Source: a virus
Taxonomy: Duplodnaviria; Heunggongvirae; Uroviricota; Caudoviricetes
Virus record (IMG/VR): IMGVR_UViG_2571042053_000015
DNA length: 11,688 nucleotides
Direction: 5' to 3' (one strand)
Below, in pieces: positions 1,761-7,803 of the stretch (position 1 is its first letter; the number at the start of each line of letters is the position of its first letter). The notes under the pieces were generated by a model, which ran no database searches, had not been told where the DNA came from, and was given only the letters and a program-made list of their open reading frames with translations. A program made the position numbers and the translations under genes.

Positions 1761-2312
1761 ATGAAAGATATTACAAACATCGCAGTGACTGGCGAAGATG
1801 GCGTGGTGACGTATGCCGACGGCAGTAAAGAGGAGTTCCAGTGCAGCGGAACCGTTGCGACCATCATTGCAAGTCTTGCAACGACACTCGAGAAAGAACG
1901 CAAAATGCGCATCGCCACCGGCGACCGCCTGCGCCGCATGTACACCCGCGACAGTGATATGATTTCCCGCGGTTTGAATGGCACGTCTGCTACTTCCACG
2001 GCACCGACAGCAATGAATGCTGAGTTCATGCGTCTGGTACGTGCCGTAGCGCCGAAATACGATTCAGCACTGCCCGACGCCGACCCGCGCATCGTTGCGC
2101 TCGATGTGCTGCGCTACGCCCCTGCTGAGGCGTTCAGCGCCGTACACCCTACCCCAATGTCAGAAATCCAGCTGGATCAGGCTATCGATATACTCGAGCA
2201 GGTTGGCGACTACATGAAAGCAAACAATATCGCTCCGAAAATAATTTCTACAGGAGACGCAATCCGCAGCATCAATGCTGACAACGCCACCTTCTGGGGC
2301 AAAAAACACTAA
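1761..2312 (+). CDS. Hypothetical protein (183 aa), first gene of cargo operon 1
   Basis: ORF with a GAGG Shine-Dalgarno 8 nt upstream of the ATG. No motif recognised from sequence. Co-directional and tightly spaced with three downstream genes. Confidence 0.7.
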   Translation: MKDITNIAVTGEDGVVTYADGSKEEFQCSGTVATIIASLATTLEKERKMRIATGDRLRRMYTRDSDMISRGLNGTSATSTAPTAMNAEFMRLVRAVAPKYDSALPDADPRIVALDVLRYAPAEAFSAVHPTPMSEIQLDQAIDILEQVGDYMKANNIAPKIISTGDAIRSINADNATFWGKKH

Positions 2313-2318
2313 AGAGAT

Positions 2319-2513
2319 ATGAGCATGCCTATCTATGACCCGAAATTAGCCGCAGGCAACCCACAGCGCGCCCACCGCCCGATGCTGACCCGTCAGGATC
2401 TTGAAGCGGCAAAGGCACGCAATAACTTCGATCGCCAGAGTCGCAACCTGCAGCAACTCAACGAATCAAATGCACGGTTCTGGAGTGAACAGAATGAGAA
2501 AGCCAAACGTTAA
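2319..2513 (+). CDS. Small hypothetical protein (64 aa)
   Basis: ATG at 2319, 7 nt after the upstream stop, preceded by AAAGAG. Hydrophilic, Q/R/N-rich. Overlaps the next ORF by 20 nt in a different frame. No recognisable domain. Confidence 0.45.
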   Translation: MSMPIYDPKLAAGNPQRAHRPMLTRQDLEAAKARNNFDRQSRNLQQLNESNARFWSEQNEKAKR

Positions 2514-2670
2514 GCCGGTCCTGCTGTCCGCCGAGCAGATGCAGGCCATACGCAACATTCAGGAACGTGAACGCCAGCGCTCCAATCTCGGCGTCGCTCC
2601 CACCGTTCACCAGATTGCCCGCGGCCTCATGGCTAAGGCTCTGGCCTCACTGGCAAGCGAGGGCGTGTAA
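2494..2670 (+). CDS. Small hypothetical protein (58 aa), internal start of the 2401-2670 ORF
   Basis: ATG at 2494 preceded by GGAG (2482-2485) at 8-nt spacing. Its TAA stop (2668-2670) overlaps the ATG of the next gene (TAATG), indicating translational coupling. The longer 2401 start lacks a Shine-Dalgarno. Confidence 0.5.
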   Translation: MRKPNVKPVLLSAEQMQAIRNIQERERQRSNLGVAPTVHQIARGLMAKALASLASEGV

Positions 2671-3341
2671 TGGGCGCCATTCACCAGATATATGAGCAGG
2701 AAATGTTCTATAACTGGATAGGCGATGGTAAACGATGTGTAGCATTCCACGAAGCGGGCCATGCAGTAGCCGCATGGCTTATTCGCTTAGATATGCAGGT
2801 TATCGCCATTATGGATGAATCCGGCTACGTTGCTGGCGAACATGTACATGAAGCCCAGTGTTTGGGCGTTGTTAAACACGGCATAATCCACAACCACGAT
2901 CTCAGGCGTTTGCGGGAGAGTAAATCTGGTGTAGTTGGGCACGATGGCAAAGTTATCCCTTTCATACGCTACTACGCGGAAGGTATAAAACGCGATGCAA
3001 CAAAGGCCGCTTTTGTAGCCCTCGCTGGACCAGTAAGCGAAGCCCTTTACGAAAATAACGAAATTTTCAATAAAAAGTATTCACTCCCTCACCGCTATGA
3101 CATGGCTAACGTAAATGACATGCTCGATTTAATATGTGCCACGGATAAGCAAATTAACAGGAAGTTAATGCTTTCTAAACTTGTTGAAAAGACCAAATTC
3201 CTCATGACTCAATACTGGCCGGAAGTAGGAAAAATAGCGCATTTGCTTGAGCGGGATAACATTGTTAATGGGCGCGATGTTAGCTCGCTAATCGGCCTCA
3301 ACGTCATTGACCGGGCAACGCCATTTTTGCTGGCGGAATAA
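2670..3341 (+). CDS. Stand-alone zinc-metallopeptidase-domain protein, FtsH-like (peptidase M41-type HEAGH motif)
   Basis: 223-aa ORF. Residues 24-36 VAFHEAGHAVAAW carry an HExxH zinc-binding motif in the FtsH-like context (FtsH has AYHEAGHAI). No AAA+ ATPase or transmembrane region precedes it. Start codon overlaps the upstream stop. Confidence 0.75.
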   Translation: MGAIHQIYEQEMFYNWIGDGKRCVAFHEAGHAVAAWLIRLDMQVIAIMDESGYVAGEHVHEAQCLGVVKHGIIHNHDLRRLRESKSGVVGHDGKVIPFIRYYAEGIKRDATKAAFVALAGPVSEALYENNEIFNKKYSLPHRYDMANVNDMLDLICATDKQINRKLMLSKLVEKTKFLMTQYWPEVGKIAHLLERDNIVNGRDVSSLIGLNVIDRATPFLLAE

Positions 3342-3417
3342 CCCCTGCCCGAGCTCATTCGACGATTTATTCCTCGGCGGGTAAGCTATACCGGTCTACC
3401 TAACTGCGAGCACAAGG

Positions 3418-4476
3418 ATGATGAATAATTTAATCAATCGCATTGCTTTAACCTTTCTAGCGTTAGTACTCACAGGCTGCACTGCGGGGAAAATCGATCC
3501 CGCAAAAGCGTTAACACAAATGCATATCGTCAAAAGTGATGACTATAAGAAGCGCCCCGGCTGGCCTGCGTTGGTTCGTCTGGGTACTGACGATTGTGAG
3601 ACATACAAAAGTGGCGGCGGTAGCCTCTTTAAGTGGGACGGGCTGACGTGCAACGACAAAAGCATTATCCTGGCGGTTAATAGCAAACCACAGACCATTC
3701 CAGTGTTCTACGCTGCTTACCATGAATACGGGAGCTATGGGGTCGGGGAACTATCCAATTTTGACAATAGCACCCGAACAGGTGAGGAAGCCTCGAAGAT
3801 TCTGGTTAACCTGACCACAGTATTGAACAATCCGGCAAAAGTTGACGCTATCTATGCTGACTATGAAAAGGATCGTTGGAGCATGGGACTTGGTACAGTC
3901 AACGAAAGCGATTTTAAAAAGAGCCTGGCTACTTTTGCTCAGGAACGGGATAAGCTTGCCTCTGAATACCATAAATTACGTGACGCAAACCAAAAGAGAT
4001 ACCTAGCTGAACGGGACGAACGAATCAAACGTGAGAAAGAAGAGGCCATGGCCTCTGAAAAAACGATTGATCTCGTGTTATGGCAGAATCCAACAGTTGA
4101 GCAACAGATGGTTGTTGACGCTCTGCACACTATTAAATTCACAATAAGAAACGATGGCGTGGCATACGCTAACGGTCGCCGATTTATGTCAATTGCCGGG
4201 ATGGAATATCTCAGGAATAGCCTAGCTCTGAGTATGGAGTCATGTTCAGACGCTGGGGCATATGTTGGTGATACGGCATTAAATCGCGCATGTATTCAGG
4301 GCTTGGCGAGGAACATTGTTGAGTGGGGGAAAACCGCCAACGACCGTTCTATTTCAGACAGAGCATGGAACGCAGCCGCAATGGATGGCAGCATTAACTA
4401 CAACCCAATCAAGTATGAAATCCTGTTTTCACATTGGGCAGGAATGGCCCGTGTCTACTCTGCTCGTAGATATTAA
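3418..4476 (+). CDS. Predicted lipoprotein (352 aa) with a central coiled-coil / charged segment; function unknown
   Basis: N-terminus MMNNLINRIALTFLALVLTGC has a hydrophobic signal peptide and lipobox L-T-G-C (Cys21). Charged, helix-prone segment ERDKLASEYHKLRDANQKRYLAERDERIKREKEEA. Gene is visibly AT-rich compared with int and primase. Followed by a terminator. Confidence 0.75.
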   Translation: MMNNLINRIALTFLALVLTGCTAGKIDPAKALTQMHIVKSDDYKKRPGWPALVRLGTDDCETYKSGGGSLFKWDGLTCNDKSIILAVNSKPQTIPVFYAAYHEYGSYGVGELSNFDNSTRTGEEASKILVNLTTVLNNPAKVDAIYADYEKDRWSMGLGTVNESDFKKSLATFAQERDKLASEYHKLRDANQKRYLAERDERIKREKEEAMASEKTIDLVLWQNPTVEQQMVVDALHTIKFTIRNDGVAYANGRRFMSIAGMEYLRNSLALSMESCSDAGAYVGDTALNRACIQGLARNIVEWGKTANDRSISDRAWNAAAMDGSINYNPIKYEILFSHWAGMARVYSARRY

Positions 4477-4526: not shown

Positions 4527-4552
4527 AGCCCGCATTTTAGCGGGCTTTCTTT
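4527..4552 (+). terminator. Rho-independent terminator after the lipoprotein gene
   Basis: AGCCCGC-ATTTTA-GCGGGCT stem-loop (7-bp GC-rich stem, 6-nt loop) followed by TTCTTT, 50 nt after the stop at 4476. Confidence 0.6.
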
Positions 4553-4618: not shown

Positions 4619-5731
4619 CTATTTAACTAAACGTAAATGTGACGGGCGTATCCCCGATTCCTGGGTACTCGATTTTCCACCATTGATAGCTTCCATAAAG
4701 AAGCTGTTACTGAAAGTAAGTGCACTCGCTTCGTCCGCTGGTAACCTCAACTGCTCGAGAATATCTCCCCTTTTAACGCCTTTGCTGCGTAGGGCTGAAA
4801 ACACTTTATCCAGCACTAATGACTTTTCACGTTCAGCAATCCCTTGAGGCTCACTCGTACGATATCCACGGCGAGCAAGTTCTATCGATAGCTGTCGATA
4901 ATGCCATTCGGTAGATAAACCGACATCAAACGTACGGCGCACCAAAGCCGCCAATGATACCCGCCAGTTCTTTTTTAACGAGATGAGTAGATCAAGCGAT
5001 GGCATTCTTGGCACTAAAGCTAAAATACTACGCTCAGGCATCAAAAAGGCCGATGCGAATCGATCTGCATCCTGCTCAGCTTGGCGGCCGTTGTTAGTTG
5101 AATGTTTATGGAGAACCAAGTGCCCCAGTTCATGAGCTGCATCGAATCGACTACGCTCCGGCGTTTTCATTGTATTCAAAAGCACAAAAGGTTTTTCATC
5201 CATCCAGAACGAAAAGGCGTCTACTTCAATACAATTTTCCGCGAGAGAGAACACACGGACCCCATTAGCTTCAAGAAGATGGACCATGTTAGAGATGGAT
5301 AATTCACCTATCCCCCAACTTTCTCTAACCACGCGAGCAGCTCGCTCAGGCTCAGAATAACCATCGAAACTACAATCAGGTACATTAGGTTTAGGAAGCT
5401 TAAACTGCCCGTCAATCCAAGCTGATAGCTCTTGCGCGAGCTTTCCGGCTCCGAGTGCTGAGTCCCTTTTCTGTGCCGTCAACTTTGTCATTGCACGGAA
5501 ACTAACGGCTTCTGGCGACAGAGTAGGTACATCCCTGTCGAGGAAGAACTCAATCGGATAGCCCAGAACAGCAGAAATCCGTTCCATGGTATCGCTGGCT
5601 ATGGCATCAAAAATCCCTGCTTTCTCGTAATTCGAAATCGTCTTACTAGTCAATTCTGTAGCTTCAGCTAAAGCTCTTTGTGTCAGGCCTCTCCGTTCTC
5701 TGGCTATACGTAAACGCTCTGAATTAAACAT
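4619..5731 (-). CDS. Fused XRE-family HTH / ImmA-IrrE (M78-like) zinc-metallopeptidase protein
   Basis: 370-aa ORF. N-terminal HTH (RLRIARERRGLTQRALAEATELTSKTISNYEKA, typical XRE / Cro-C1 helix-turn-helix). Central HExxH in the ImmA/IrrE context (RFDAAHELGHLVLHKH). Second gene of a two-gene - strand operon, 9 nt after the upstream stop. Confidence 0.85.
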   Translation of the reverse strand: MFNSERLRIARERRGLTQRALAEATELTSKTISNYEKAGIFDAIASDTMERISAVLGYPIEFFLDRDVPTLSPEAVSFRAMTKLTAQKRDSALGAGKLAQELSAWIDGQFKLPKPNVPDCSFDGYSEPERAARVVRESWGIGELSISNMVHLLEANGVRVFSLAENCIEVDAFSFWMDEKPFVLLNTMKTPERSRFDAAHELGHLVLHKHSTNNGRQAEQDADRFASAFLMPERSILALVPRMPSLDLLISLKKNWRVSLAALVRRTFDVGLSTEWHYRQLSIELARRGYRTSEPQGIAEREKSLVLDKVFSALRSKGVKRGDILEQLRLPADEASALTFSNSFFMEAINGGKSSTQESGIRPSHLRLVK

Positions 5732-5740
5732 GGTGCATAT

Positions 5741-6460
5741 TTAGCCTGTTTTTAAAATGTCGAGATCGATATCCGGTGTAAACTGCGGTACATCACCGTT
5801 CTGAACAATAGGGTCAGGTTGATGAGGAGCAATAATTAAACGTGTGGAGAAGGCATTAACTACATTCTTGTTATTGTATGAAATCGGGCGTGAAAGCTCA
5901 GCTCGGATCCCCACGCGCTCATCCCCGTCAATTTCATAAAAATCGTAAAGTAAAAACCATAAGTCCAGTCCGATTTTATTCGGTAGCAGTGGTATAACAT
6001 CACCTTCCGGCATGTCTAAATCCAGCTTAAGCTGGCTATCATCCAGGATAAGCTCACCCTGACCCGGGGTGTTATTATGGATTAACCCCATCAGCTCACA
6101 AGTAAAATCACCTTTCTTCATGCGAGACTCAGGAAATCCATGAACCAAACCTGTCTGATCACACCCCCGGCAGAGGTAAAGGGCAACTTTATCACTTACA
6201 GTCAGTTCAACATTTCGCAGGGACAGACGTTTGTAGCCTTTCGGAGCCAGAATGTCGCGGGCTGCACTCACCCCCTCACCATAGAAATATTGCCCACGTG
6301 AGGTCTTGGGGTGATTCTGAGTCGTCGAATAACGACCAGACAAGCCACGCTCAAGAATACGCCTGAGATCACTTTGGCTCAGATTCAGGGACTGCAGGTA
6401 GGATTCAACATCGTCAGGATCTGCCAAAACAATGGTTTTTGCGAGATTATGAGAGTACAT
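5741..6460 (-). CDS. Hypothetical protein (239 aa), first gene of the - strand two-gene operon; candidate effector / toxin partner
   Basis: ORF with a good Shine-Dalgarno (AAGAGG about 9 nt upstream of the ATG on the - strand). No motif recognised by eye. Immediately upstream of the HTH-peptidase gene. Confidence 0.7.
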   Translation of the reverse strand: MYSHNLAKTIVLADPDDVESYLQSLNLSQSDLRRILERGLSGRYSTTQNHPKTSRGQYFYGEGVSAARDILAPKGYKRLSLRNVELTVSDKVALYLCRGCDQTGLVHGFPESRMKKGDFTCELMGLIHNNTPGQGELILDDSQLKLDLDMPEGDVIPLLPNKIGLDLWFLLYDFYEIDGDERVGIRAELSRPISYNNKNVVNAFSTRLIIAPHQPDPIVQNGDVPQFTPDIDLDILKTG

Positions 6461-6489
6461 CGGAAAAGCCTCTTATATATTTTCTATTT

Positions 6490-6518
6490 TTTATACCTCA
6501 TTTGAGGTTTAAAAACAA
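6490..6518 (-). promoter_or_regulatory. Candidate promoter of the - strand operon with a palindromic operator (ACCTCA-TT-TGAGGT, 6495-6508) in the spacer
   Basis: Read on the - strand: -35 TTGTTT (+ strand 6513-6518), 17-bp spacer containing the 14-bp inverted repeat, -10 TATAAA (+ strand 6490-6495), about 29 nt before the ATG at 6460. Confidence 0.35.
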
Positions 6519-6666
6519 GAAAATCACTGTATAAAATCTCAGAGATAATCGACAGATTAGAGAGTATTATCCATATTGAGGCTATCCCGACGGGGAGAAA
6601 AGCGGCTACGCCTTGCCGCCTGCCTCCCCCATTATCTCAAGGCGGTGACGTGTAAGGCGAACGTGC

Positions 6667-7494
6667 ATGAGTGGTTTTGTTTTTCCTTTCGAGTTTCAAC
6701 CAGTGCCAGAGGCATTGGCAATCCTGAACGACATGGATATTGCTCCCTTTGAAATAACCGAAAAACACCTAGAAAGCTGGTGGGCGGAGGGGAAAATTCA
6801 ACTGTGCTTTAACTGGGGTAGATTCTGGAAAGCTGGCTTAGCCGACGAACTGGCAAAAACAGAAGGCTACGCAGAATTAGGGGCGAAAGAAAAGATCACT
6901 GCGCTCAATGCTGTATCCGCTTCCCCCGAGGCTAACATCAGTCTTGTCGTGCCATCTTACAGCGATTTAAGTTTTATCTGGCGCGGGCATAGCGACGATC
7001 CACTCCCCTGTATCGAGGCCAAACCCTACGGGCTTGATCAACCTTTTGTTATCAAACGCGTTCCTCACACCTGCGAGGACTATTGCGATTACGGTACGCA
7101 GCATTGGGAAAAACTTTACCATTCGCTGCACATTTCGAGTATGGTGCTGCCGCGTGCTGAAGCTGAAAAAATTTATTATCTCTGCAACCCTACAGCTATT
7201 CCAGGCATGGACGAAAAGACGGCATCTGCAGTATCTGCAGTATCTGCGAAAACGGTTAACTATCTGGCCACTGCTTTAAAAGCTTTTATTCACATCCATT
7301 ACGGGGCTGATGTGGCGGACAACCTGCGCAAACATCTTGAGGATCCCACCAGTGATATACGGAAAGACTTTGCGAATAAAGGGATCAAAGCGCCAGGTGG
7401 AAAAGCGCTGGCCAGCCATCTGAAAAATATTCTGATTGAAGTTTTACCCGCGCTCGACAACGTCGATGTGGAGAGTGACGCTGGTAATACATAA
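6667..7494 (+). CDS. Hypothetical protein (275 aa), orphan cargo gene immediately upstream of alpA
   Basis: ORF with AAGG 9 nt upstream of the ATG. No recognisable catalytic motif. Cys/His-rich patch (PHTCEDYCDYGTQHWEKLYHSLH). Contains an in-frame 9-bp tandem repeat. Confidence 0.7.
   Translation: MSGFVFPFEFQPVPEALAILNDMDIAPFEITEKHLESWWAEGKIQLCFNWGRFWKAGLADELAKTEGYAELGAKEKITALNAVSASPEANISLVVPSYSDLSFIWRGHSDDPLPCIEAKPYGLDQPFVIKRVPHTCEDYCDYGTQHWEKLYHSLHISSMVLPRAEAEKIYYLCNPTAIPGMDEKTASAVSAVSAKTVNYLATALKAFIHIHYGADVADNLRKHLEDPTSDIRKDFANKGIKAPGGKALASHLKNILIEVLPALDNVDVESDAGNT
7222..7248 (+). repeat. In-frame 9-bp tandem repeat, three imperfect copies (GCATCTGCA GTATCTGCA GTATCTGCG), encoding ASAVSAVSA
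   Basis: Direct inspection of the sequence inside the 6667-7494 ORF. Confidence 0.7.
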
Positions 7495-7590: not shown

Positions 7591-7803
7591 ATGAAATCGC
7601 AAACTTTCACCTTTCCCACCAATGGCAACGCACGAGCCAAACAAGTGGCGCACTATCTTGGAGTGCATATCAGCACCGTATGGCGCTATGCAAAACGTCC
7701 TGATTTTCCAAAACCCCACCAGTTAACCGACGGCGTGACCGTCTTTGACGCCGCAGCTATTCGCCAATGGAACAAGCAAAAAACCGGGGGTGAGAATGCT
7801 TAA
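7591..7803 (+). CDS. alpA: AlpA-family (P4 Vis-like) transcriptional regulator / excisionase-like protein
   Basis: 70-aa protein from the internal ATG at 7591 (AGGTAA Shine-Dalgarno just upstream). Sequence QVAHYLGVHISTVWRYAKRPDFPKPHQLTDGVTVFDAAAIRQW matches the AlpA / Vis winged-HTH pattern. Position between int and primase matches P4-like elements. Confidence 0.8.
   Translation: MKSQTFTFPTNGNARAKQVAHYLGVHISTVWRYAKRPDFPKPHQLTDGVTVFDAAAIRQWNKQKTGGENA

Follow-up and report, generated by a model that had tools for sequence, protein, structure and literature searches.

A nested four-half-site dyad enclosing the candidate promoter of a RosmerTA toxin-antitoxin operon, proposed as its autoregulatory operator

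XRE repressors are paired with M78 metallopeptidases that inactivate the repressor on a stress signal in CapH/CapP (CBASS), ImmR/ImmA (ICEBs1) and DdrO/IrrE (Deinococcus), and these systems provide the precedent for the locus described here (bioRxiv 10.1101/2022.04.27.489752; PMC10440598). CapH binds DNA only with oligomerisation (dimer/tetramer), its site is a 22-bp element located 5' of the -35, and CapH-CapP fusions exist (bioRxiv 10.1101/2022.04.27.489752). In the XRE-type type II antitoxins HipB, MqsA and HigA, the HTH binds palindromes overlapping the promoter of the antitoxin's own operon; these palindromes are separate, arranged in tandem, and all share one specificity. DdrO recognises a palindrome of 17 bp, and MqsA recognises short ACCT..AGGT palindromes similar to the one discussed below. 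RosmerTA anti-phage systems were reportedly described by Millman et al. in 2022. RosmerTA (RmrT/RmrA) systems are anti-phage toxin-antitoxin systems (Ernits et al., 2023, PMC10440598), and a toxin-first order is common for the Rosmer node (58%; PMC10440598). The proteins are described and regulation by HTH cleavage is suggested in the searchable Rosmer papers (PMC10440598), and no operator or promoter of Rosmer or RmrA is described in the searchable literature. Rosmer modules are widespread in anti-phage defence, and a sharply defined operator conserved across phyla would offer a handle on their activation.

The window (the whole stretch of DNA that was analysed, 11,688 nucleotides) is an integrative island adjoining yicC in E. 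coli (STEC and relatives); its genes include those for a tyrosine integrase, a D5-type primase, an AlpA-like regulator and an Icd-like protein. On its minus strand lie two co-oriented genes separated by a gap of 9 nt, both of which match PADLOC models. The first, rmrT (5741-6460), encodes a protein of 239 aa belonging to the Rosmer toxin family (PADLOC RmrT PDLC03935, E=1.1e-52), for which no Pfam or PDB sequence match and no recognisable DNA-binding domain were found; the RmrT model weakly resembles restriction endonucleases, this fold assignment not being significant (Foldseek best E 0.2) and a canonical PD-(D/E)xK motif not being evident. The second, rmrA (4619-5731), encodes a protein of 370 aa in which an N-terminal XRE HTH (about residues 1-65; Pfam HTH_3, 4e-9) is fused to an M78/ImmA-IrrE Zn-peptidase (Pfam Peptidase_M78, 9e-21; PADLOC RmrA PDLC03949, 1.3e-149), with the HExxH residues H200, E201 and H204 invariant in 23 RmrA homologs. 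By these matches the operon is a RosmerTA toxin-antitoxin phage-defence system of toxin-first order (rmrT then rmrA), an identity that the sequence-only reading, which had spoken of an HTH-peptidase operon, lacked. Profile searches with RmrA against the PDB returned CapP, the HTH-M78 protein 9vzy, ImmR, CapH and HipB. The AF2 model of RmrA (pLDDT 85) comprises a five-helix Cro/C1 HTH and a peptidase domain, of which the former superposes on CapH-NTD, DNA-bound SinR and DNA-bound P22 c2 and the latter resembles CapP and IrrE; as modelled, the HTH has the canonical DNA-binding Cro/C1 fold. In both sequence and structure the HTH is closest to CapH/ImmR, the peptidase being closest to CapP/IrrE. 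In contrast to CapH/CapP, ImmR/ImmA and DdrO/IrrE, where repressor and peptidase are separate proteins, RmrA carries a repressor-type HTH and the peptidase in one polypeptide, which is also the antitoxin.

Upstream of this operon, the plus strand at 6495-6508 reads ACCTCA-TT-TGAGGT (A6495 CCTCA6500 TT TGAGGT6508), with perfect 6-bp arms about a 2-nt centre, and the inverted repeat claimed at these positions by the sequence-only reading is present exactly there. Perfect inverted repeats with arms of at least 6 and loops of 0-4 number 28 in the window against 15.4 +/- 4.1 in dinucleotide shuffles, and at least one arises in 24% of shuffled copies of the 206-bp intergenic region, a frequency that speaks for a functionless chance palindrome in AT-rich promoter DNA. 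The 6-2-6 repeat by itself is within chance. However, an inverted-repeat search identified it as the core of longer arms (6479-6500 and 6503-6524; 22 nt each, 86% complementary), which form a nested, imperfect dyad of 46 bp at 6479-6524, taken in the minus-strand direction as the proposed rmrTA operator, with 19 of 23 symmetric positions complementary and its centre between 6501 and 6502. The score of the 46-bp dyad (19/24) is the top value of the whole window, the second best being 14, and it was matched by none of 200 window shuffles, 2000 intergenic shuffles or 5000 AT-rich-core shuffles; the extended dyad is non-random. Together with the compensatory conservation described below for 74 loci across phyla, which argues against chance from the comparative side, this leaves the chance-palindrome reading effectively refuted already, and virtually no probability is given to it.

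Two tiers of unlike sequence are nested on one centre in the dyad. Dyad positions 2-7 are the inner half-sites, contained in the 14-bp palindrome, and positions 18-23 the outer arms, namely an upstream arm (6519-6524, minus strand 5'-ATTTTC, positions 23-18) just 5' of the candidate -35 and a downstream arm (6479-6484, minus strand 5'-GAAAAT, positions 18-23) that covers the predicted transcription start. Relative to the rmrT ATG, the element occupies the stretch 19-64 nt upstream, and it encloses a candidate TTGTTT-17-TATAAA core promoter, the -35 and -10 of which fall between the tiers. As an operator, the 14-bp palindrome proposed by the sequence-only reading is therefore the core, and well placed, but incomplete, the full element being the 46-bp nested dyad with independently varying outer arms; one HTH dimer bound at the 14-mer would be insufficient, because a second pair of arms lies over the upstream edge of the -35 and over the start site. 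The element is most likely of a well-known kind, an operator through which an XRE antitoxin or repressor controls its own operon. In comparison with the CapH and DdrO sites, the Rosmer site is longer (46 bp), contains four half-sites and encloses the core promoter, and in contrast to the tandem palindromes of HipB, MqsA and HigA it carries its two unlike tiers on a common centre. Relative to the searchable literature, what is new is the 46-bp nested four-half-site architecture, its cross-phylum conservation and its natural specificity classes.

For the comparative analysis, GTDB species genomes were scanned with the RmrA alignment, yielding 80 loci of 45-88% identity from Enterobacterales, Vibrionales, Alteromonadales, Burkholderiales, Methylococcales and many Alphaproteobacteria, as well as from Desulfobacterota, Nitrospirota, Acidobacteriota, Actinomycetota, Bdellovibrionota and Myxococcota. 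An rmrT of 210-250 aa was located immediately 5' of rmrA in nearly all of them (about 75 of the 80 related loci). Within the 130 nt 5' of rmrT, one conspicuous common element stands amid unrelated sequence, with the consensus ACTTCTTGTTTTT-nn-CCTCA-nn-TGAGG-TATAAAAAC-nGGAAGT. In 68 loci the dyad profile matches a single place (on both strands, from its symmetry), in every case a short way upstream of rmrT; after the variant classes were added, 74 of 82 homologous loci were aligned gap-free on the dyad centre. The centres were picked within +/-4 nt for the best dyad score, so that the symmetry counts given here are biased slightly upward. In this alignment the inner arms (positions 2-6) are complementary in 88, 93, 80, 96 and 84% of the 74 loci, with 2-4 Watson-Crick pair types each, and the outer arms (positions 18-23) in 100, 96, 96, 84, 70 and 51%, where position 19 is a near-invariant T:A and each of the other five shows 3-4 pair types; the complementarity of both is far over the column-shuffle expectation. 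Between the tiers, positions 7-9 are asymmetric, with a conserved T-A at 7-8 on the downstream side and a variable upstream side, positions 10-14 are a conserved T-tract/A-tract, and positions 15-17 are a conserved G-T-T (part of the TTG of the -35) on the upstream side and variable downstream. From position 24 onwards the symmetry is lost.

In an independent count on the same 74-locus alignment (A2), the covariation of the true pairing was 0.355, compared with 0.154 +/- 0.009 after shuffling (0 of 500 shuffles reached it) and 0.09-0.14 (<=0.137) with slid partners, and 201 cells were altered on both sides where 78 were expected. The centring step cannot produce covariation or the contrast with slid partners, and the compensatory signal therefore stands apart from it. 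Compensatory forms of the outer arms are ACTTC/GAAGT, ATTTC/GAAAT, GTTC/GAAC, CGTAAC/GTTACG, ACTTCAT/ATGAAGT and TGTTGATTTT/AAAATCAACA, and those of the inner arms are CCTCA/TGAGG, CATCA/TGATG, CCTTA/TAAGG, TCACG/CGTGA and ATCGAT/ATTGAT. By these compensatory changes, dyad symmetry is under selection in both tiers, as read from the alignment. The tiers combine into natural inner/outer specificity classes, CCTCA/ACTTC, TCAC/CGTAAC, ATCGAT/ACTTC and CTCTCA/CGTTAC, which lend themselves to helix swaps. A local palindrome inside each outer arm was also considered, and AAC-N5-GTT was found in some beta-proteobacterial loci only, so that it is not general. In practical terms, the motif is a marker for annotating this RmrTA subfamily and its promoters in genomes.

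The minus-strand region upstream of the ORF with its ATG at 6460 reads ...GATTTTCTTGTTTTTAAACCTCAAATGAGGTATAAAAAATAGAAAATATATAAGAGGCTTTTCCGATG and contains a candidate -35 TTGTTT (6518-6513; at that register in 49 of 74 loci), a candidate -10 TATAAA (6495-6490; the exact hexamer in 28 of 74 loci and closely similar ones in others) and a Shine-Dalgarno sequence AAGAGG for rmrT (6474-6469). The spacing between the hexamers is 17 nt and is constant across the aligned loci. The palindrome occupies the 3' portion of the spacer, and its final T on the minus strand is the first base of the -10. With matches to consensus of 3/6 for the -35 and 5/6 for the -10, this promoter fell below the threshold of the consensus scan, which left it unlisted, and its assignment accordingly rests on comparative evidence. 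Of the 74 loci, 68% have the TTG of the -35 and 5% have its mirror image, 77% have the A at -11 and 23% have its mirror, and positions 7-8 are conserved on the right side of the dyad, with left counterparts that are not. The departures from symmetry are exactly the bases of a promoter directed toward rmrT, which gives good comparative support for the candidate -35 and -10. A weak sigma-70-type promoter TTGTTT-17-TATAAA embedded in the dyad is proposed on this basis, and the placing of the palindrome in the spacer of a minus-strand promoter by the sequence-only reading agrees with a -35/-10 pair and 17-nt spacer conserved in many phyla. The transcription start is predicted at 6482-6484 (minus strand), placed from the hexamer positions at about 7 nt past the -10. 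With this predicted start, the dyad covers about -41 to +5, the 14-bp palindrome lies at about -25 to -12, abutting the -10, the inner half-sites at about -28 to -24 and -17 to -13, within the spacer, and the outer half-sites at about -41 to -36, at the upstream edge of the -35, and at about -1 to +5.

In nine alphaproteobacterial and acidobacterial loci (L043, L056, L059, L060, L063, L065, L069, L079 and L082) a canonical CTTGAC overlaps the upstream outer arm or directly precedes it, upstream of rmrT, and the dyad centre carries TATATT in L059 and L060 and TAAATT in L079. From these sequences, the register of the promoter relative to the dyad is shifted by about 7 bp in those lineages and is not universal. 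The dyad is more constant than the promoter register, because TTGAC shifts relative to the dyad in some lineages.

The symmetry could also be that of a nucleic-acid hairpin, that is, an RNA stem-loop of a transcript started upstream or a DNA cruciform, with no protein site. An RNA covering 6527-6476 (a 52-mer, if fully transcribed) folds with -16.4 kcal/mol (z=-5.6), and weak, sub-threshold Rfam matches to hairpin families overlap the dyad (6463-6564); no Rfam family over the dyad reaches its gathering threshold. Against this, the conserved, directional -35 and -10 inside the dyad mean that the downstream outer arm alone would be transcribed, and from one locus to the next the sequences flanking it upstream are unrelated. 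Position 2 is paired in 88% and position 1 in 23% of loci, and the hairpin cannot form, because this pairing leaves a loop of 0-2 nt; furthermore, the non-Watson-Crick cells are without G:U bias (GT 31, AC 21, other 68). The hairpin explanation is considered highly improbable.

As to its distribution, the element lies directly upstream of rmrT-rmrA and is confined to that site: none was found outside the rmrT upstream position in the homologous loci or the E. coli genomes. In comparison with a 77%-identical E. coli rmrTA in another context, similarity ends about 8 bp past the dyad, and the neighbouring genes of the module differ at every locus, the divergent neighbours being unlike. Among 5,426 complete E. 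coli genomes, the dyad-containing 66-mer was found exclusively upstream of rmrT, in 10 genomes and in a clade with an IS1-truncated rmrT that keeps the operator. The near-identical E. coli copies have an equal intergenic length and an identical dyad-containing 66 bp, and are uninformative on operator variation. By these comparisons the element is co-inherited with the rmrTA module, which bears out its attribution to this operon by the sequence-only reading. The truncated clade consists of frog and sediment E. coli strains in which an rmrT-like ORF is cut by IS1 after about 60 codons; in strain ET151 (NZ_CP100996.1; L085, 3001-3260) it retains a class-1 Rosmer operator (CACTTCTTGTTTTCACCCCTCATTTGAGGTATAAAAATCGGAAGT).

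The same data bear on the possibility that the dyad is bound by a regulator of the host or the island, such as the AlpA-like HTH protein (7591-7803) or a global factor, or that it serves the divergent plus-strand promoter-like sites at 6508-6537. The region is a divergent intergenic spacer, and these plus-strand sites overlap the upstream half of the dyad, as such an explanation would have it. Nevertheless, the dyad accompanies rmrTA across unrelated contexts and phyla in which the divergent neighbours differ, and the other E. coli copy ceases to be homologous at about the dyad edge. For the divergent-promoter variant, the mirror-image promoter elements are not conserved and the promoter-like matches in the window are at chance (14 vs 12.3 expected). 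A regulator from outside the module, or a divergent promoter, is regarded as very unlikely.

Conservation of the site across more than eight phyla means that its binder is either module-encoded or universal, and the RmrA HTH is the sole recognisable DNA-binding domain in the module. We infer that the RmrA HTH is most likely the operator binder, because the element travels with the module and divergence of the recognition helix tracks divergence of the operator. When the distance of the rest of the protein was partialled out, the distance of helix 3 (residues 28-36) correlated with that of the operator (r=0.36 for the outer and 0.28 for the inner arms, p=0.0005), and helix 2 did not (r=-0.18 outer and -0.01 inner). 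The non-symmetric middle segment gave a partial Mantel r of 0.28, so that some phylogenetic confounding remains in the correlation. By column, mutual information between all RmrA/RmrT columns and the operator pair types did not single out helix 3: the top eight columns (for positions 4, 18 and 20) include K30 and N34 of helix 3 but also F344, Q280 and others, high-ranking columns were spread over both proteins, and this phylogeny-dominated measure was not used as evidence. An apparent rule linking residue 31 to outer position 21 (T with TTTC, S with CTTC) amounts, on an NJ tree built from the protein outside the HTH, to about one deep split, with L024 and L065 against it and L071 for it.

The assignment of individual arms is less simple, since the inner and outer half-sites are unlike in sequence and vary independently. 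In L046/L053 (helix 3 SRPALHRYE) and L067 (TAVTISRLE), helix 3 is wholly different and the outer arms are new, with the inner CCTCA-like arms kept. In L059/L060/L079 it is the inner arms that differ (ATCGAT), helix 3 staying class-1-like and the outer arms staying ACTTC. The near-identical HTH domains of L044 and L049 are set apart by six residues, of which one (S33T) is in helix 3, and the inner arms of these loci are CCTC and CATC, the change being compensated on both arms. Because helix 3, the outer arms and the inner arms change separately, the HTH may read either the inner palindrome or the outer arms. The simple dimer model fails, because one HTH per chain would have to match two unrelated, independently varying half-sites; moreover, the outer arms are 40 bp apart, past the reach of a dimer seated on the 14-mer. 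A single HTH specificity for both tiers, as ACTTC and ACCTC in the main class would allow, was rejected, since it fails for CGTAAC versus TCAC and for ACTTCA versus ATCGAT. Part of the dyad may, on this pattern, be read by something other than the RmrA HTH.

Such a composite operator would have the RmrA HTH on the outer arms and the inner palindrome read by an RmrT dimer as co-repressor, or by a second surface of RmrA, and its corollary is that the repressing species would be the toxin-antitoxin complex. The independent change of the unrelated half-sites in the loci just described speaks for it, as does the slightly better correlation of helix 3 with the outer arms, although the gap (0.36 vs 0.28) is small, and type II systems offer established cases of a toxin serving as co-repressor. 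On the other side, the fold assignment of RmrT is not significant, RmrT has no recognisable DNA-binding domain, and 14 bp is a classic palindrome length for XRE dimers (434, P22, MqsA). A composite operator is on balance unlikely. The specific form with the RmrA HTH on the outer arms and an RmrT dimer on the central, restriction-site-like palindrome is quite improbable. If this two-protein reading were true, the toxin would be held inactive on its own promoter in the repressor complex and freed upon RmrA cleavage, and transcriptional control and toxin activation would be joined in a single DNA-bound assembly.

The preferred reading, which is considered likely, is that the 46-bp dyad is the promoter-operator of RosmerTA and is bound by an RmrA oligomer that represses its own operon. 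RmrA would bind the four-half-site dyad via its N-terminal XRE HTH, the binding species being an oligomer above a simple dimer, formed by RmrA alone or with RmrT; by analogy with CapH, RmrA may bind as a higher oligomer. Seated on the dyad, RmrA would occlude RNA polymerase, and expression of the toxin-antitoxin operon would stay low and self-limited; loss of RmrA, by self- or trigger-induced M78 cleavage or by titration, would de-repress the operon. De-repression by cleavage or titration is proposed by analogy, if a reasonable one. The site bears on whether the fused M78 peptidase strips the HTH from DNA in infection, like CapP, ImmA and IrrE.

The surroundings of the module yielded several further observations. 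An int-alpA RNA (Rfam RF02996) was identified at 6575-6642 on the plus strand (46.5 bits, gathering score 35.8, E=1.5e-8), coinciding with an inverted repeat at 6592-6606/6615-6629 upstream of a 275-aa ORF. It is the only above-threshold Rfam match in the region and shares the intergenic region with the dyad but is outside it; being beyond the end of the Rosmer module homology, it is assigned on sequence grounds to the island backbone and not to the operator. The divergent 275-aa ORF (6667-7494, plus strand) has no Pfam, PADLOC or NCBIfam match and differs by a 9-bp in-frame indel from the near-identical E. coli copies (828 vs 819 bp). Between the integrase and the Rosmer genes, co-oriented cargo genes on the plus strand (1761-4476) encode proteins of 183, 64, 58, 223 and 352 aa that have no family match, the 223-aa protein giving a weak HExxH/M41-like signal (E=3e-4, below the cut-off); these genes may form another, uncharacterised module of cargo or defence genes. 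Finally, a GC-rich hairpin, AGCCCGC-ATTTTA-GCGGGCT, at 4527-4546 between the convergent ends of the 352-aa ORF (4476) and rmrA (4619), is probably a bidirectional terminator.
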